Made by a program: the position numbers and the translations under genes
Origin: Candidatus Caldarchaeales archaeon
GTDB lineage: Archaea; Thermoproteota; Nitrososphaeria_A; Caldarchaeales; Calditenuaceae
DNA: 24,000 nt
NCBI GenBank assembly: GCA_039630085.1
Contig: JBCNVM010000007.1
Location: 7,742 to 31,741, forward strand
Direction: 5' to 3'
Notes under the pieces: model-generated
What the model was told of the DNA's origin: nothing
The model's database searches: none
The model's input: the letters and a program-made list of their open reading frames with translations, nothing else
Shown here: positions 3,384-16,287 of the stretch, piece by piece
How the letters are laid out: each line of letters opens with the position of its first letter
Numbering within the stretch: the stretch's first letter is position 1

Positions 3384-4730
3384 TTACTTCAGCAGCACTA
3401 TGCCGTCCAGCATGAAGTTGAGCCTCGCGAGTAGAAATTCGTCTGTCGGCATCTCTTTTGCGGGCTTCACCACGGTACCCTTCGGAGGTACCTTCAGGTT
3501 GAGCTGCGGTATTTCGATCCCCTCGCCACTGCTGACCAGCTCGTTCTCATAGAACGGGTCCCAAGCGCCGCTCATCATCTGAGCCCTCCTGAGCTCTATG
3601 AGTTTCAGTACCCTCTCGGGGATGAGCGGTCTCGCCTTCGGGCTGATCGCCTCGAGCCCCACCTTCATATCGTTCTGTAGGTCGACTGCCGGCAACTTGG
3701 TCTGGCCTGGCATGATCGGATTGTTCTCCGGCAGCGAGATGTGTGTGTTCATGCCCAAGAAGTAGATCCTGTCGGGGTTAGTAGTGCCCGCGAGGTACTC
3801 CTTCAGGATCCGGTCGAAGAGGACCTCCCATCTGGTGTCGAAGGATACGGCAACCGTGTCGGTGGTAGACCACTTGTAGAGTCCCACCACGTCCGTGTCC
3901 TTACCTACGAACCAGATCTTTTTCTCCTCCGCGACCCTGAGGGGCTCGACCGAGTCCGTGTAATGGGTCAGGACATCGACCCCGGCGTCCACTAACGCAA
4001 GCGATACCTCCTTCTCCTTGGGCGGATCGAACCACTCGCCGACGTATTTGATGTACAGCGTCGCGTTAGGGTTAGCGTCCTTGATCCCCAAGTAGAACGC
4101 GGCCATCCTCCTGAAGTTCTGCACGGCTGCCGGCCCCACTGCTATGCCGATCTTGTTCTTGCGCGTTATGGCGCCTGCGATCAGTCCCTCGAGGTACATC
4201 GCCTGATACTGTCTGATGAAAACCCTCATGAAGTTCCTTCTCGAAGAGACGTCGCTCCCGACGATGCCGAGGAAGTAGACGTTGGGGTTTTCGTCGGCTA
4301 TCCTGTGGAACGCGGGGACTGCCGCGGGCTCCCAGCTCCCGAAGATCACGTTGGCCTTGTTGACGGTGATCAGGTCCCTGGCCGACGATATCGGGTCCTT
4401 GCCCTTCAGGATAACACCCTCGTCGCGGACGTAGTCGAACCAGTTGTAGATCTTCTTCAGCCTCTCCGCGGCCATCACCTGGCGCCCGTCCCACGTCGAG
4501 CCCTCGACGTATCCTCCTAGGACCATCCCCAGAACGACCTTATTGGTCGCTTGAACCTCACGGGTCACGGTTGTCGTGAAGGCCCTCGTCTCGGTCACAG
4601 TCCGAGCTGGAGCTGCAGAGCCCCCAGCGAAGTATCCCCCAACAGCTCCCACGACTCCAGCGCCAACGGCGGCCGCCGCGACCTTTCCGGCAGTCGAGAT
4701 GGCCTCCCTTCTCGTTACCCTTCTAGTCAC
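3384..4730 (-). CDS. BMP-family (PnrA/Med-like) ABC substrate-binding protein with Tat-like signal/anchor
   Basis: 448-aa ORF with GTG start at 4730. The N-terminus has TRREAIS followed by the hydrophobic stretch AAAAVGAGVVGAVGG, then a Thr-rich linker (TVTETRAFTTTVTRE). The body has BMP-like blocks (AMYLEGLIAGAITRKNKIGIAVGP, FDPPKEKE, DAGVDVLTHY). It is convergent with the permease genes. Confidence 0.75.
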   Translation of the reverse strand: MTRRVTRREAISTAGKVAAAAVGAGVVGAVGGYFAGGSAAPARTVTETRAFTTTVTREVQATNKVVLGMVLGGYVEGSTWDGRQVMAAERLKKIYNWFDYVRDEGVILKGKDPISSARDLITVNKANVIFGSWEPAAVPAFHRIADENPNVYFLGIVGSDVSSRRNFMRVFIRQYQAMYLEGLIAGAITRKNKIGIAVGPAAVQNFRRMAAFYLGIKDANPNATLYIKYVGEWFDPPKEKEVSLALVDAGVDVLTHYTDSVEPLRVAEEKKIWFVGKDTDVVGLYKWSTTDTVAVSFDTRWEVLFDRILKEYLAGTTNPDRIYFLGMNTHISLPENNPIMPGQTKLPAVDLQNDMKVGLEAISPKARPLIPERVLKLIELRRAQMMSGAWDPFYENELVSSGEGIEIPQLNLKVPPKGTVVKPAKEMPTDEFLLARLNFMLDGIVLLK

Positions 4731-10635: not shown

Positions 10636-11898
10636 ATGGAGACGCTTAAGGAGGAGATCGAGAGGGCGAACGATAAGTGCCTCGATCTGATGATGGAGGC
10701 GAGGCCCCTCCTCGTGGACATCGTAGAGGCGCGGAAGGTCATACCCTTCCTCGCGAAGGACAAATGCCTCACGCATGCGGGCCCGCCGATTAGCTGGGAT
10801 AGGGCCAGCGGCCCCCTGAGGGGCGCGATAATCGGAGCCGCGATCTACGAGGGCTGGGCCGAGAACGAGAGAGAGGCGATCAGGCTGGCGGAGAGGGGTG
10901 AGATAGTCCTCGAGCCCAATCACCATCACTCGGCGGTCAGTCCCATGGCCGGCGTCATCTCGCCGTCGATGAAGGTCTTCGTGGTCAGGGACGGTGACCT
11001 GAGGACTTACAGCAACCTCAACGAGGGGCTCGGTAAGGTCATGAGGTACGGCGCCTACTCCCCCGACGTTTTGGACCGCCTCCGCTTCTTGAACGAGGTC
11101 GTCGGCCCCGTTCTCTCCGACGCGGTGAAGGAGTACGTCCGTGATAAGGGGGGAATGGATCTGAAGAGCATAATGGCCCAGGCGGTCCATATGGGCGACG
11201 AGTGTCACAACCGGAACATTGCCTCGACTTCCCTGTTCTACAGAGAGATATCGTCCTATGTTATCGACTCGACTGACAAAGAGACAGCAAAAATTGTGCT
11301 TAAGACGATCGACTCTAACATCTTATTCTTCCTTAACATGGCAATGGCGGCCTGCAAGCTGATGGCCGATAGGGCCCACGGCGTCAAGTACAGCACGATC
11401 GTGACCACGATCGCGAGGAACGGCACGGACGTCGGCATCAGGGTGAGCGGGCTCGGAGACCAGTGGTTCACAGCTCCGGCGACCATACCTAGGGGTCTGT
11501 ACTTCTCAGGGTTCAGCGAGTCCGACGCAAACCCCGACATAGGCGACAGCACGATAACCGAGACAGTCGGGCTCGGTGCGGCCGCTTTGGCGGCGAGCCC
11601 GGCGATCGTGAGGTTCATCGGCGGGGACGCGAAGACGGCGATCGAGATCACCAACAGGATGGCGAAGATCTGTCACGGCAGGCACCGCTACTTCACGATC
11701 CCCTATCTAGAGTTCGAGGGTACCCCAGTTGGGATAGACATCAGGAGGGTTCTGCGACTCGGTCTTCCGCCTGTGGCCGACACGGGCATAGCGCATAGGG
11801 AGGCCGGAGTGGGGCAGATAGGCGCAGGGATCGTCGAGCTGCCGATCGAGCCCTTCAAGCAGGCCCTGAGGAAATACGCCGAGGCCTACGGGATCTGA
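10636..11898 (+). CDS. DUF1116 protein (YlbE/AllG family)
   Basis: 420 aa. It is collinear with E. coli YlbE as recalled: LTHAGPPISW, EGWAENEREA, NHHHSAVSPMAG, NLNEGLGKVMRYGAY, MGDECHNRNIAS, FFLNMAMAACK, GIRVSGLGDQWFTAP, ANPDIGDSTITET, DTGIAHREAGVGQIGAG. Confidence 0.85.
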   Translation: METLKEEIERANDKCLDLMMEARPLLVDIVEARKVIPFLAKDKCLTHAGPPISWDRASGPLRGAIIGAAIYEGWAENEREAIRLAERGEIVLEPNHHHSAVSPMAGVISPSMKVFVVRDGDLRTYSNLNEGLGKVMRYGAYSPDVLDRLRFLNEVVGPVLSDAVKEYVRDKGGMDLKSIMAQAVHMGDECHNRNIASTSLFYREISSYVIDSTDKETAKIVLKTIDSNILFFLNMAMAACKLMADRAHGVKYSTIVTTIARNGTDVGIRVSGLGDQWFTAPATIPRGLYFSGFSESDANPDIGDSTITETVGLGAAALAASPAIVRFIGGDAKTAIEITNRMAKICHGRHRYFTIPYLEFEGTPVGIDIRRVLRLGLPPVADTGIAHREAGVGQIGAGIVELPIEPFKQALRKYAEAYGI

Positions 11899-11986
11899 AC
11901 ACGACAGCCCTCTGTAGGGCCCTTCGCCAATCGATCAGCCGACCGGAGCCTTAGTCGGACCTCTCGCCGACGAGCAGGGCTGTTCT

Positions 11987-12010
11987 GTGGACCGGGCGGG
12001 ATTCGAGCCC
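11987..12010 (-). repeat. Inverted partial copy of the tRNA-Ala 3' end (T-loop to discriminator/first C)
   Basis: 11987-12006 (gtggaccgggcgggattcga) is the exact reverse complement of tRNA positions 14189-14208 (20/20). The match is 23/24 when extended to 12010. The GC content drops immediately after 12010. Confidence 0.85.
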
Positions 12011-12071
12011 AGATTTACTCACCGGCTTTCCTTATTACTCCGAAAAAAGGTAGGTAAGTTCACAGAAAAAG

Positions 12072-12080
12072 TTATAAATT
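12072..12080 (+). promoter_or_regulatory. TATA box for the HAD gene
   Basis: TTATAAATT lies 24-32 nt upstream of ATG 12104, consistent with a leaderless transcript. Confidence 0.4.
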
Positions 12081-12103
12081 TCTACGTGCAAGGGTTTATA
12101 ATA

Positions 12104-12973
12104 ATGAGCAGAGTATTCCATAATACAATCGCCCTCATAATGGATTGTGACGATACGCTGTGTGAGGACACCACTGACGCGTGTCTAAAGCAGATCGGAA
12201 TAGAAGATCCTCTGGAGGACTTCTGGAAAAAGAGAGTAAAACCCAAGGTCAAAGATGGCTGGGACCCGCCACTAGCGTATATGACCGAATTCATAAATGT
12301 GGCCAAGGAAAAAGGTACAAAACTCACAAAGGATTTTTTGAGAAAGTAGGACGAAATCTGAAATTTTATCCCGGAGTTCCAAACTTTTTCGATGAGTTAA
12401 GGAATGAGGTCAAAGCTATTAGCAACGAGTACGAAATCGACATAAGGATTGAGTTTTATGTTATTAGCTCAGGTTTTGAAGAGGTCATAACGGCGAGTCC
12501 TCTAAACTCCTATGTAACCGAAATTATGGATGTACATTTTACATTGATGAAAACGGTCGTGTAATATGCCCGAAATCGATAGTAACGTTTACGGAAAAAA
12601 AAACAAATTTGTGTTCGCGATAAACAAGGGCATTAACAAGATGATTTTACGAAGTGACCCTGGTAGAGTTAATGACACGATAAGTGAGGAGAATAGAAGG
12701 ATTCCCTTCAAGAACATGATCTACATAGGAGACGGACCAACAGACATACCCTGCTTCTCGCTTATCACAAGGAACGGGGGGCGAGGATTAGGAATTATAC
12801 AGCCCGAAAAGCCAGAAAGGGGGGCTCCATTATGGAAAGGACGAAGAATAACTGTGGGACCGTACCGCCCTAATTATGAGCAAGGATCAGACCTCCGACT
12901 TATGATAAAGGCTTTGATAAGAGACATCTCAGCGAGTATTTATGAGGAGTCGAAAATGTCATATCGCCCGTGA
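12104..12973 (+). pseudogene. HAD-superfamily hydrolase gene disrupted by three single-nucleotide deletions
   Basis: HAD motif I (IMDCDDTL) is in frame 2. Motif II (YVISSG) is in frame 1. The segment YGCTFYIDENGRVICPKSIVTFTEKK is in frame 3. The K..KG region and motif IV (YIGDGPTDIP) are back in frame 2. The frame switches are at about 12346 (GG), about 12525 (TT) and the A9 run at 12595-12603. The track shows three fragments: 11987..12349, 12181..12564 and 12566..12973. Confidence 0.75.
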
Positions 12974-13025
12974 CATTCATTAACAAATAGATGTCGTCGC
13001 GATCTCGATCGAATAAACCATCATT

Positions 13026-13037
13026 ATTTTATAAAAT
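13026..13037. repeat. Perfect 12-nt palindrome ATTTTATAAAAT, copy 1 (TATA-like)
   Basis: Read directly from the sequence. It is self-complementary and preceded by ATCATT, as is copy 2. Confidence 0.7.
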
Positions 13038-13126
13038 TCTCGTAGAGCGGAGCACGTTGACCTATCCTGTTAAATACGTAGACGAAACATCGCATACTCG
13101 ACGCATTCGGAAAAATCATTTACACT

Positions 13127-13138
13127 ATTTTATAAAAT
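13127..13138. repeat. Perfect 12-nt palindrome ATTTTATAAAAT, copy 2 (TATA-like)
   Basis: An identical 12-mer lies 101 nt downstream of copy 1. The context is ATCATTtacacTATTTTATAAAAT. Confidence 0.7.
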
Positions 13139-14134
13139 GTTGAATACAGTATAGAGAGCTAATTTTATTTTAGCATTAGTGACTGATTTTAAGTGTTGTT
13201 TTGTTGATCGCTCTTCCTTTCAGTATACTGGTCGCAGCATTTGGTTAAACCTGTCCGGAGGAAAAGGCAAGTCGTTTCGGTGGCTTCTGGGTTTGGATTA
13301 GCCATGGGGTTGATAGGTGGAATTTTCGGACGCGGGTTGGGCTGCTTACATAGTTTACAATAAGGTCATCTGGGATTATTTCGTTGTTGGCTGTTCATAG
13401 TTTGTGACATTATAATAATTTAGAGAACTACAAGAAAGATCTCACGTCGTCTCAAGCTTGTGGAACGGGAGGTTCGAGGGTAACTGTTCGAGTTTTGACG
13501 GCTCGGTGGGAAATGGTCTGCCGAAGCTGTGGAAACATCCCGACACTAAGCTTTAGAGCGTATAACATCTGTGGTTCAAGGCTCTACATGGAGAGATAGG
13601 TGTAAAATACCCTGTCTGCAAAGGTTCCCTATCCTGCACCACAGAAACCGTTTGAAAGGAAGGACAGAACAGGCTCTTAGAAGAATAGCAGATTGTGTGA
13701 GGAGATTTGGGACACCCGGATAACCCTAAATCGTGTTTCAGTCTCGCTCAAAAAGCTCATCAGAAAGTTCTTGAAATTGATTTTTCTGATTTACGGTAAC
13801 AACCAGCTTTTTCGTTGAGAAAACCTAAACGCTATAGTTGTGAAGATGTCTGTGAATACTGAGAGATGAGGAGGTTGGAGAGGAAAACGCAGTCTCAGAG
13901 GTGCCGAAAAGTGTCTCTGAAGAGCGTTGATCGGGAAGTTGCGTTCGCCTTGCTTCCTGACAGCGACAGTATTATCACTTCGGCGTTGATACTCCTGAGA
14001 AATCTGGCTCGAAATAGTCAACCCGTCACAAAAGGATGTGAGACGAAAAAAGCAGGAGTCATAGGAACGAATTAAGGCGGAGAAAGCCCGATTACATTAA
14101 AACTAAAATTCTCCGAGTGAGAGATGCGATAAGG

Positions 14135-14210
14135 GGGCCGGTAGATCAGCGGTATGATCGCCCGGTTGGCGTCCGGGAGGTCGCGGGTTCGAATCCCGCC
14201 CGGTCCACCA
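14135..14210 (+). tRNA. tRNA-Ala (anticodon GGC) with genomically encoded CCA
   Basis: Hand-folded cloverleaf. Acceptor gggccgg/ccggtcc has a G3:U70 pair, the Ala identity element. D stem is gatc/gatc. Anticodon stem is cccgg/ccggg with loop ttGGCgt. Variable loop is aggtc. T arm is gcggg-ttcgaat-cccgc. Discriminator is A, followed by CCA at 14208-14210. An AT-rich box (cattaaaactaaaatt) lies about 25-40 nt upstream. Confidence 0.9.
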
Positions 14211-14240
14211 ATCCTGTGATGCAATAAGGGTAACCATGAA

Positions 14241-14281
14241 GAGGGAAAAATAGAGGAGGAACGCTTCGTCGGATTCTCCTC
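14241..14281 (-). terminator. Stem-loop plus T-tract downstream of the LAGLIDADG gene
   Basis: The minus strand reads GAGGAGA-aatccgacgaagcgt-TCCTCCTC followed by TATTTTTCCC, about 30 nt after the stop at 14312. T-tracts are the usual archaeal termination signal. Confidence 0.4.
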
Positions 14282-14311
14282 AGAGTTCTTCGGAAGCATC
14301 TGCACCGAAAT

Positions 14312-15391
14312 TTACTCCTCCTCGTCGGGAAGTATCACGAGTGCGACATCCCCGTCGGAGTTCACTAGAGGTACACTCGGAGCCTTTTCCTCAGCGACTT
14401 CCTCTTCAACGATCTCCTCATCGTCTCTCGGTTTTCGCCAACGTCTTCTCAGCCGGAGCATTCTCTCCCTTACTATCTCTTCGAGCCTGCGCAGCTTCCT
14501 CTCAATAGAAAACCCGACCTTTTCCAGAAACAGCGGCAGGCAGGCATTACGTATTCGGATCCTATAACAGTCCTTACTAGACACGCCCCCTCCGATCTCC
14601 ATTGATGTGCCGGCTGGTATGTGTAGGTACGGACCTGTGGACATTATTCCTAGGTCCTCCAACAACTCCTGTGCCCACCTCAGCACATCGACGTTTGTAT
14701 TGTACAGTATTACGCCGCTCTTACCGACACTTCCCTCCGAGTCGAAGAAACCCCGGAGGAAAGCGACCTTTGTCTGTTCATCGTGCTCGACGAACTTCCG
14801 TATTCGTTCGATGTCTCTATCAATAAGAAGCTGGGTCAATATTATGTCCCGCACTCTAACGACATAAAACGTCTTCCCGTCTCTAACCATTTCTAGAATC
14901 GGCGGAGGATCCCTGTTCAGGACTTTCGCCAGCGCCTGTGCGAAGGACATGGCGAAGTCCAGATCCCGGACAATTAGTTGGATCACACATGCCCATTTAC
15001 GTCTATAATGGAGCAGATAGACTGACCCGTCCCCGAAGACCACGCCTATGACATAGGCTAGTTCCGGAGACGGCTCCAGCTCGTCGAGTGACCGGAACCT
15101 CCGACGCTGGGATAATCCCATCCGATAGGGCGACCTCTCCCCTCTCATCCATCTTACTACGGTTGACTGATATATTGTCACCCCGAAGGTTTCATAAATA
15201 ATTTCCACGATCTGTTTGACGCTGTATCCTTGTTCTATCAGCTGTAGGGCTACATGATAAATCTGGATCATGAGGGCTTTGGGTCTCCTTCGGCGCTTTT
15301 TCGTGGTCCCTCCTTTCTTAGATCGTCGGGTCTCGCCTCTCGGGCCAAGAGACGAGACTGCTAAGTCCGGATCCACCAAGCCATCCGACAT
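14312..15391 (-). CDS. Free-standing double-motif LAGLIDADG homing-endonuclease-like protein with N-terminal HTH and acidic C-terminal tail
   Basis: There are two LAGLIDADG motifs about 95 aa apart, LAYVIGVVFGDGSV and VAFLRGFFDSEGSV, and both keep the acidic catalytic position (D, E). The N-terminus has a basic KKRRRRPK stretch plus a resolvase/transposase-like HTH (GYSVKQIVEIIYETFGVTIYQSTVVRWMRG). A strong SD, GGAGGTGA, lies 6 nt upstream of ATG 15391. Confidence 0.8.
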   Translation of the reverse strand: MSDGLVDPDLAVSSLGPRGETRRSKKGGTTKKRRRRPKALMIQIYHVALQLIEQGYSVKQIVEIIYETFGVTIYQSTVVRWMRGERSPYRMGLSQRRRFRSLDELEPSPELAYVIGVVFGDGSVYLLHYRRKWACVIQLIVRDLDFAMSFAQALAKVLNRDPPPILEMVRDGKTFYVVRVRDIILTQLLIDRDIERIRKFVEHDEQTKVAFLRGFFDSEGSVGKSGVILYNTNVDVLRWAQELLEDLGIMSTGPYLHIPAGTSMEIGGGVSSKDCYRIRIRNACLPLFLEKVGFSIERKLRRLEEIVRERMLRLRRRWRKPRDDEEIVEEEVAEEKAPSVPLVNSDGDVALVILPDEEE

Positions 15392-15576
15392 TTCCTTTCA
15401 CCTCCGGGGGTCGAACTCCCTTCCCCGAGCAGGAAGAAACCCTCCCGCATGGGCAGGAGGGTCCCCCTGTCGAGGGCCAGACCACCTGAGGGGTGAATTT
15501 AAGCCTCGCTAGCGGCGTCGGTCCGAGACCTAGGGAACGGGATGGGCTTTATCCGGCAGGAGCTCGGCGACCGGTC

Positions 15577-16287
15577 GTGAAAGATTGGACCCTTCCCGTG
15601 GTGGTTCTGAACTTCAAGGCGTACAGGGAGGCGGTGGGAAGCGGCGCAGAGAGGCTCGGTTACGTCGCGGAGACCGTCTCGAGGGAGCTGGGCGTCACGG
15701 TCGCGGTCGCGGTCCAGCCGACCGACGTCTACAGGCTCTCCGGCAGGCTCGGGATTCCCGTCCTGGGACAGCACGTCGATCCCTACGAGGAGGGGAGCTG
15801 GACGGGGCACGTGACCGCGTTCGCGCTGAGGGAGGCTGGGGCAGCGGGGAGCCTCCTGAACCACTCCGAGAGGAGGATAGGGCTCTCCGAGATCGCGGCC
15901 GCGGTCGAGCTCCTCAGGAAGGAGGGCCTGAAGTCGATCGTCTGCGCCGACACGCCGCTGACCAGCAGGGCCGCCGGAGCCCTGAGGCCGGACATGGTCG
16001 CGGTCGAGCCCCCGGAGCTGATAGGGACCGGGATATCGGTCTCGAGGGCGAGGCCGGAGGTCGTCACCGACGCGGTGAAGATGCTGGCCTCCGTCGAGCC
16101 GAGCGTCTCGCTCCTCTGCGGCGCGGGCATCTCGACCCCGGAGGACGTCTACAGGGCGATAGAGCTGGGAACGGTGGGAGTGCTGGTCTCGTCGGCGTTC
16201 GTGAAGTCCAAGGACCCCCAGCAGACCCTAACGGGCTTCTGCGAGGCGGCGCTGAAGGCCTACGAGCGGAGGGTCAGTAGATCCTGA
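15577..16287 (+). CDS. tpiA: Triosephosphate isomerase (archaeal type)
   Basis: Motifs VVVLNFKAY, GSLLNHSERR, AVEPPELIGTG and LCGAGIS are present. The track ORF starts at GTG 15493 with 28 non-conserved codons. GTG 15577 (or GTG 15595) gives the typical length of about 230-236 aa. Confidence 0.85.
   Translation: MKDWTLPVVVLNFKAYREAVGSGAERLGYVAETVSRELGVTVAVAVQPTDVYRLSGRLGIPVLGQHVDPYEEGSWTGHVTAFALREAGAAGSLLNHSERRIGLSEIAAAVELLRKEGLKSIVCADTPLTSRAAGALRPDMVAVEPPELIGTGISVSRARPEVVTDAVKMLASVEPSVSLLCGAGISTPEDVYRAIELGTVGVLVSSAFVKSKDPQQTLTGFCEAALKAYERRVSRS

Follow-up and report, generated by a model that had tools for sequence, protein, structure and literature searches.

The gene at positions 14312-15391 of a 24,000-nucleotide stretch of archaeal DNA (the window; contig C64 of G000, a 1.41-Mb, 90% complete metagenome-assembled genome of a Candidatus Caldarchaeales archaeon) encodes a protein, P0001, that is probably an intact monomeric LAGLIDADG homing endonuclease of the I-DmoI type carrying an added N-terminal helix-turn-helix (HTH) DNA-binding module; cleavage activity is predicted from its alignments and its structural model. 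The gene sits in a cassette of ~1.27 kb that consists of a leader, the open reading frame (ORF) and a short 3′ segment, and it belongs to an apparently large and undescribed archaeal family whose members lie at the 3′ ends of tRNA genes. By analogy with SegB of phage T4, the best reading of this arrangement, and one that we consider likely, is that P0001 is a free-standing homing endonuclease that targets tRNA ends, with cleavage again as a prediction. The gene and the parts of its product are the following.

14312-15391, minus strand: coding sequence of the HTH-LAGLIDADG protein P0001 (359 amino acids plus stop codon)
15146-15280, minus strand: N-terminal three-helix HTH domain, residues 38-82 (predicted helices and weak Pfam matches)
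14519-15067, minus strand: double LAGLIDADG nuclease core, residues 109-291 (I-DmoI alignment, conservation, AlphaFold model and Foldseek)
15026-15061, minus strand: motif 1 (D121), residues 111-122
14732-14767, minus strand: motif 2 (E219), residues 209-220
14315-14425, minus strand: acidic, disordered C-terminal tail, residues 323-359 (common to the closest relative, the G004 copy)
15398-15405, minus strand: Shine-Dalgarno GGAGGTGA, 6 nt upstream of the ATG (read from the sequence)

Comparisons of both sequence and predicted structure place P0001 beside I-DmoI. Pfam LAGLIDADG_3 matches residues 208-293 (E 1.3e-11), and the only PDB matches found by sequence are I-DmoI chains (E 1e-5, residues 111-252, identity ~20%), whose two motifs align to the two LAGLIDADG motifs within the single P0001 chain. 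Specifically, D121 (motif 1, GDG) is paired with I-DmoI D21 and E219 (motif 2, SEG) with E117. An AlphaFold (AF2) model built on 37 homologues (mean pLDDT 84) contains HTH helices at residues 38-53, 58-69 and 75-82 (pLDDT > 90), a linker, a core at residues 109-291 with the double alpha-beta-beta-alpha-beta-beta-alpha fold (pLDDT > 90) and a long helix after the core (297-319), with residues 1-36 and 320-359 disordered. The top Foldseek match of this model is again I-DmoI (E 2e-11, TM 0.71-0.75 on target), and inteins, maturases and the regulator WhiA (E 2e-6) follow far below. Pfam matches to the HTH of P0001 itself are weak (HTH_7, HTH_33 and HTH_32); the N-terminal modules of its homologues give clear matches to HTHs of the transposase or resolvase type. 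An earlier first-pass annotation of this DNA had described an HTH-LAGLIDADG protein with both catalytic acids, and had named structure prediction as the check on its double fold; the retained D121 and E219 and the I-DmoI-like core bear this out. The basic N-terminus (a stretch at residues 22-38, preceding the HTH), the HTH and the long acidic tail that it listed are likewise all present in the translation and the model.

The gene is free-standing and lies outside any intron or intein. We base this on an open frame of only 361 codons, which reaches just 2 codons upstream of the ATG, on a Rfam search of 11800-15800 that found no intron RNA family, and on the completeness of the neighboring tRNA. 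An intein context is also lacking, as a stop codon stands 2 codons before the ATG and the NCBIfam matches to intein-bearing proteins cover the endonuclease domain only, with scores far below cut-off. Thus, the view that this is an independent gene with its own Shine-Dalgarno holds, and the case of an unrecognized intron or intein around it does not apply. Judged by its sequence, the gene is intact in every measurable respect.

To place the gene among its relatives, we used the family alignment as query and retrieved 80 loci from Caldarchaeales, Nitrososphaerales, Nitrosopumilales, Thermococcus, Archaeoglobaceae and Methanocaldococcus (a search with P0001 alone returned none), and detected tRNA genes at these loci with ARAGORN and Rfam combined. 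At 48 of the 80 there is a convergent tRNA gene; measured from the position that corresponds to residue 312, its 3′ end is 4-120 bp further on (median 66). The chance expectation is 0.5% per locus, given 18 other tRNAs in 321 kb of flanks, which puts the binomial P at ~1e-87; a further 13 loci have an antisense T-arm motif at the same distance. The ORF ends themselves range from 104 bp inside the tRNA gene, in antisense, to ~100 bp before it, and several database proteins therefore end in translated tRNA antisense. Two loci (L074 1484-1602 and L077 3236-3550) have a convergent 5S rRNA or signal recognition particle RNA gene 270-345 bp downstream, with a T-arm-like motif in between, and the neighborhoods of stable-RNA genes may be favored more generally.

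The same arrangement recurs across the tRNA genes of a single relative, G016 (2.0 Mb), which holds 64 family pieces. Among its 48 tRNA genes above the Rfam cut-off, 27 are occupied, covering at least 20 isoacceptors, and the C-terminal ends of the copies lie 15-103 bp from the 3′ ends of these tRNAs; seen from the other side, 27 of the 36 pieces that hold a C-terminal end adjoin a tRNA. At ~25 of the 27 occupied genes, the cassette end (ATATTAGTTATTATTTTGAG or the variant ATTTTAGTTAATTGATAAG) begins on the final base of the tRNA or no more than a few bases from it, and at least four of the ‘unoccupied’ tRNAs bear the cassette end alone. This end is T-rich in the reading direction of the tRNA and could be its new terminator. 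Regarding the tRNA genes of G016 themselves (L152-L199), CCA is encoded in 0 of the 27 occupied genes, compared with ~6 of the 21 unoccupied ones. At L172, which is unoccupied and encodes CCA, a cassette end stands directly after the CCA; the tRNA-Ala gene of the window also encodes CCA.

Particular branches of the family keep to particular tRNAs. With loci ordered by the protein tree, a euryarchaeal clade is always found at tRNA-Met, at the same acceptor end and with a dN/dS (ratio of nonsynonymous to synonymous substitution rates) of 0.05, and one Nitrososphaerales clade is found at a single Cys-type tRNA. Such a link of one clade to one tRNA across genera is as would be expected of site-specific homing. 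Close paralogues from the Caldarchaeales occur at Ser, Lys, Leu, Ala, Gly and Phe tRNAs, and the sequence they have in common reaches the tRNA end. Among congeners, an identical tRNA-Lys(TTT) is occupied in G016, carries a degenerate remnant in G015, and is empty in G008, G010, G012 and G014. At another locus (L012 2385-2741, the same as L049 3386-3708), two exact 130-nt copies of tRNA-Val(CAC) stand in tandem directly after an endonuclease copy, 227 nt from start to start, which suggests that this occupied tRNA gene was duplicated very recently.

The distribution and conservation of the family speak to what kind of gene this is. A profile search of 1.84 billion representative proteins gave 336 clusters (50% identity) at E<=1e-30, and LAGLIDADG_3 is found in all 37 aligned members. 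Family matches occur in 28 of 41 genomes (G000 and 40 relatives), 1 to 49 in each, and many of these are fragments or contain stop codons. G000 has six copies with 35-52% protein identity, two of which have stop codons and several of which lie at contig ends, and no family match was found in the 90% complete assembly of its closest sister species, G003, in which the TIM protein is 96% identical and the DNA flanking the locus 85-91% identical to those of G000. Family loci are not syntenic among relatives, and the unit repeated within genomes is only 1.0-1.3 kb. D217, S218, E219 and G220 are invariant in the 37 aligned homologues, D121 is kept in at least 90% and G122 is nearly invariant; pairs free of frameshifts have dN/dS values of 0.05-0.4 (L112/L115, L059/L068 and L065/L113, in which frameshifts gave nonsense values, were left out). 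Because a multi-copy, patchy spread is combined with conserved catalytic residues and these dN/dS values, the profile, as far as sequences can tell, is that of an active or recently active selfish nuclease and not of a domesticated regulator. The architecture varies at the N-terminus: the paralogue on contig C2 (G000:C2:44210-46306) has ~five N-terminal HTH modules, and one on contig C5 (G000:C5:6975-8222) has two, with a frame that runs past the core into the apparent start of another HTH.

The first-pass annotation had also allowed for a domesticated regulator, that is, a WhiA-like DNA-binding protein that arose from a homing endonuclease, acts on the expression of the tRNA or of a neighboring gene, and is immobile. 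The combination of HTH and LAGLIDADG, the presence of WhiA among the fold matches and the purifying selection on the family are all consistent with such a role, as is the constancy of the euryarchaeal clade at tRNA-Met with its low dN/dS; in addition, the conserved inverted repeat in the leader could be an operator. WhiA, which regulates sporulation and cell division in bacteria, indeed has the same double LAGLIDADG scaffold and an HTH, but its HTH is C-terminal, whereas that of P0001 is N-terminal, and WhiA has lost the LAGLIDADG catalytic acids, which nearly all aligned members of the P0001 family keep. WhiA Pfam models have no match to P0001 (E<=1), and just 1 of the 37 homologues matches weakly. 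Furthermore, WhiA is single-copy and vertically inherited, in contrast to a family that varies from 0 to 64 pieces per genome at different loci, includes many pseudogenes and has no copy in the closest sister species; vertical conservation at one syntenic locus with degenerate residues is not what the homologues display. We therefore regard a regulator as an improbable identity for P0001.

The locus itself has the following features in addition to the gene.

14135-14210, plus strand: tRNA-Ala(GGC), intron-less and with encoded CCA, the replacement tRNA linked to the cassette (Rfam 64 bits)
11985-12010, minus strand: stub of the native tRNA-Ala, comprising the 3′ part of the T-arm and the acceptor 3′ strand, broken in the T-stem (from comparison with G003)
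12011-14134, unstranded: low-GC foreign DNA with decayed ORFs (from GC content and comparison with relatives)
15392-15476, minus strand: conserved 5′ leader containing two hairpins, one GC-rich (~15439-15462) and the other small (~15420-15436)
14223-14295, minus strand: conserved, untranslated 3′ part of the cassette that separates the stop codon from the tRNA

The ancestral arrangement, seen in G003 and G004, runs from an AllG-like gene through tRNA-Ala, encoded on the opposite strand, to genes for a membrane protein and an SppA-like protein and then to TIM; the tRNA-Ala of G003 carries a 16-nt intron. Homology between the window and G003 ends at 11900 and returns at 15549. Between these borders lie 2.1 kb of 40%-GC DNA, then the oppositely oriented, intron-less tRNA-Ala and then the endonuclease cassette, the leader of which ends ~70 bp from the right border; a remnant of the native tRNA-Ala of ~24 nt marks the left border of the foreign DNA. 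The two neighboring host genes are absent from the (90% complete) G000 assembly. The gene has a GC content of 0.50-0.55, against 0.40-0.46 at 12001-14000 and 0.58-0.69 in the rest of the window, in keeping with the earlier description of a gene in intermediate-GC DNA beside tRNA-Ala and a rearranged island. That description placed the gene immediately 3′ of tRNA-Ala; the two are indeed adjacent, and the precise arrangement is convergent, with their 3′ ends facing each other 101 bp apart. It also cast the protein as a mobility or maintenance factor of the island. The first half of this stands in that the gene is part of a self-contained, multi-copy cassette tied to tRNA 3′ ends, but service to the low-GC island does not, as the 2.1-kb part is unique to G000 among the 41 genomes, has no counterpart at any other family copy and falls outside the family repeat unit. 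At the start of the island (11987-12973), overlapping frame-shifted ORFs with a faint resemblance to HAD phosphatases (E 0.008) look like a decayed foreign gene.

Parts of the cassette other than the core are also conserved. The leader and first 28 codons are 79% identical to those of the C2 paralogue, compared with only 41% identity for the whole proteins, and weaker copies of the leader hairpin occur upstream of other paralogues. The ~73-nt 3′ segment, with a GAGGAG...CTCCTC hairpin, also follows the stop codon of the G004 copy (L045 ~3560-3640), which is the closest relative of P0001 and likewise has an acidic tail. The same 73-nt segment is found alone at G000:C1:111115-111185, 57 bp after a tRNA and with no endonuclease gene there; the segment probably forms the 3′ terminus of the cassette, and its solitary occurrence on C1 probably marks where a copy was lost. 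Concerning the leader hairpin as an element (window 15392-15476; C2:46150-46309; C5:8162-8206; C24:1300-1373), it is better conserved than the coding sequence, shows a few compensatory changes across six sequences, and might act as an operator or attenuator or be a hot spot of recombination. By eye the GC-rich leader looks tRNA-like, yet it has no Rfam match at E<=5. A 13/16 match between the 3′ end of tRNA-Ala and codons 4-8 of the gene was set aside as chance, since the C2 paralogue, which is at a different tRNA, has the same.

Replacement tRNA alleles are linked to the cassette at two places, in the window and on contig C2. At the C2 locus, a divergent second tRNA and the cassette share one contig, with further foreign DNA beyond the cassette, and the native tRNA opens contig C14 beside its usual neighbor. 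The identity of this tRNA needs a comment: ARAGORN calls the C2 copy (G000:C2:44092-44181) Val(CAC) with an intron, but CTCTTAACCGG is present both there and in the native copy (G000:C14:1-110), and the pair resemble tRNA-Lys(CUU) genes whose introns occupy different, non-canonical positions. Their counterpart in G003 (L123 1406-1509) escaped ARAGORN.

Archaeal integrative elements classically attach at the 3′ ends of tRNA genes (PMC3293823), and the association could in principle belong to an integrase, with the endonuclease gene as a passenger in a larger element. The 3.5 kb of foreign DNA around the window gene, with a tRNA stub beside it, and the additional foreign DNA after the C2 cassette fit this explanation. 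However, the tyrosine recombinase family PF00589 is absent from the G000 assembly (90% complete) and from the island ORFs, although serine recombinases were not searched separately, and what repeats within genomes is the cassette only. No direct repeats of tRNA fragments are present on the far side of the gene at 37 tRNA-adjacent loci, and the stub in the window is inverted relative to the replacement tRNA rather than forming a direct att repeat with it. Moreover, 72,556 plasmids and 50,697 phage records contain no match, IMG/VR has a single weak one, and the number of tRNA genes occupied in G016 alone is hard to reconcile with cargo. We consider this explanation very unlikely. As an observation on the genome, PF00589 (Phage_integrase) has no match at E<=0.01 anywhere in G000, not even a XerA-like one, and is present in 14 of 14 control genomes.

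It is also conceivable that the family was once mobile and that the window copy is now inactive, a neutral relic that is gradually decaying in an island produced by unrelated recombination. In relatives the majority of copies are broken; the window copy has no close relative, its locus is a complex scar, and the solo remnant elsewhere in G000 shows that cassettes decay. The copy itself does not look decayed: its ORF is full-length and has every family-invariant residue, the structural model is confident, the gene still has an intact ribosome-binding site, and its conserved leader recurs in a second intact paralogue. Conservation with the G004 copy further extends to the acidic tail and the 3′ segment. 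On balance a relic seems unlikely.

We return to the reading that we favor, a homing endonuclease directed to tRNA ends. In this proposal, a selfish cassette of ~1.2-1.3 kb (leader, ORF and 3′ segment) would live directly 3′ of tRNA genes in convergent orientation, and its enzyme would recognize the 3′ part of a tRNA gene, namely the near-palindromic T-arm box GGTTCRAATCC and the acceptor 3′ strand, and cut at or near the boundary between tRNA and trailer. Repair from a copy that bears the cassette would then set the cassette directly after the last tRNA base and destroy the target. We predict that the HTH reads the T-box and that the nuclease core cuts a fixed distance away; the junction could be exact at many different tRNAs because the T-loop is fixed 13 nt from the 3′ end in every tRNA. 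Where homology exists on the tRNA side alone, repair would be untidy, with the tRNA co-converted or replaced and neighboring DNA deleted or imported. Untidy repair of this kind would give the state of the window: a native tRNA-Ala broken in the T-arm, the loss of two host genes and, in their place, a replacement tRNA-Ala together with the cassette and foreign low-GC DNA. Circumstantial evidence for recognition of the T-psi-C region comes from the junction 13 nt after the T-loop at many isoacceptors and from the break of the native tRNA-Ala in its T-stem.

Several observations weigh against this account. The target of the endonuclease is deduced from position only, and two C5 paralogues have no detectable tRNA nearby. 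The occupied and empty tRNA-Lys genes are identical, such that immunity would need a changed trailer, and the trailer is not conserved among the empty sites. No pair of filled and empty sites with both flanks conserved was found, as the flanks of C2 and L095 are rearranged in all relatives tried, and at both well-resolved G000 loci the cassette coincides with a break in synteny. There are at least two alternative modules upstream of cassettes, leaving the 5′ border without a single definition. Classical two-sided homologous repair cannot give exact insertion at many tRNAs, and the joining step would need another mechanism. Finally, the best relative of the window copy has 48-52% protein identity and none is near-identical, which leaves recent mobility of this particular copy unsupported.

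Comparison with known systems helps to define what is and is not new here. I-DmoI, from the 23S rRNA intron of Desulfurococcus mobilis, is the best match in sequence and fold, and like P0001 it is a single chain with two motifs and the same catalytic pair from thermophilic archaea; in contrast to it, P0001 is free-standing rather than intron-encoded, has an N-terminal HTH and charged tails where I-DmoI has no HTH, and is associated with tRNA 3′ ends instead of an rDNA target. For the proposed bipartite reading of DNA, a parallel is found in modular homing endonucleases such as I-TevI, in which a linker connects the catalytic domain to a DNA-binding module, for instance an HTH. The analogy would lie in a nuclease core that is flexibly linked to a small HTH and cuts at a set distance, but these enzymes are GIY-YIG or HNH nucleases and not LAGLIDADG proteins, and for P0001 such reading is hypothetical.

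SegB of phage T4 offers a functional parallel of a different kind. It is a free-standing GIY-YIG endonuclease encoded in a tRNA gene cluster, with a 27-bp site that includes an 11-bp T-psi-C motif, the rest of the recognition site being degenerate, and its homing carries flanking tRNA genes along (PMC2330249). The likeness, which is functional only, consists in a free-standing endonuclease gene among or beside tRNA genes and in the co-inheritance of the flanking tRNA. Unlike SegB, which has a GIY-YIG fold and one site in a phage genome, the P0001 family is of the LAGLIDADG type, resides in archaeal chromosomes at the exact 3′ junction of dozens of tRNAs, and is known from its genes alone.

A repeated element beside tRNA genes has been reported in the same archaeal order. 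In Ca. Caldiarchaeum subterraneum, Sugahara et al. (2012) described a putative transposable element, ‘a+b’, next to tRNA-Thr, which they ascribed to the integration of a plasmid, and they never mention LAGLIDADG or homing (PMC3293823). Their element resembles ours in being repeated by tRNA genes and in its company of tRNA fragments, intron gain and a replacement tRNA. Identity of the P0001 family with the ‘b’ ORF was ruled out, as the ORF at the published coordinates by tRNA-Thr(CGU) is unrelated (hhalign probability 1.5%). This ORF, at the ‘a3b4’ coordinates (L151 1227-2093), has 288 amino acids and no Pfam match, and is a second, unexplained repeated gene associated with tRNAs in this order. 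Ca. Caldiarchaeum subterraneum also holds P0001-family copies of its own, one of which abuts tRNA-Gly(TCC).

These results have implications for how LAGLIDADG enzymes persist in archaea. Archaeal LAGLIDADG enzymes are textbook passengers of introns and inteins, and free-standing homing endonucleases are well studied in phages but hardly in archaeal chromosomes; our search of the literature found no description of LAGLIDADG genes at archaeal tRNA 3′ ends. The family follows a different lifestyle, in which the gene parks just past the end of a short, essential and highly conserved gene, where splicing is unnecessary. If the targeting of tRNA ends is true, it provides a molecular explanation, open to testing, of how archaeal tRNA genes come to be broken, duplicated or replaced and how they gain and lose introns, accounts for small ‘integrase-less islands’ at tRNA genes, and offers thermostable nucleases with modular (HTH plus core) reading of DNA. 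More tentatively, and with slightly less than even confidence, HTH-LAGLIDADG cassettes may constitute an unrecognized class of archaeal mobile element that measures off the T-loop, inserts exactly behind the final base of the tRNA, can reach the majority of a genome's tRNA genes, and would be a main driver of tRNA breakage, replacement, duplication and intron turnover. The family is a plausible cause of the broken and replaced tRNA genes of archaea, and if this wider reading is true, it would identify an actual agent behind disrupted tRNA genes, the origin of which has long been debated.

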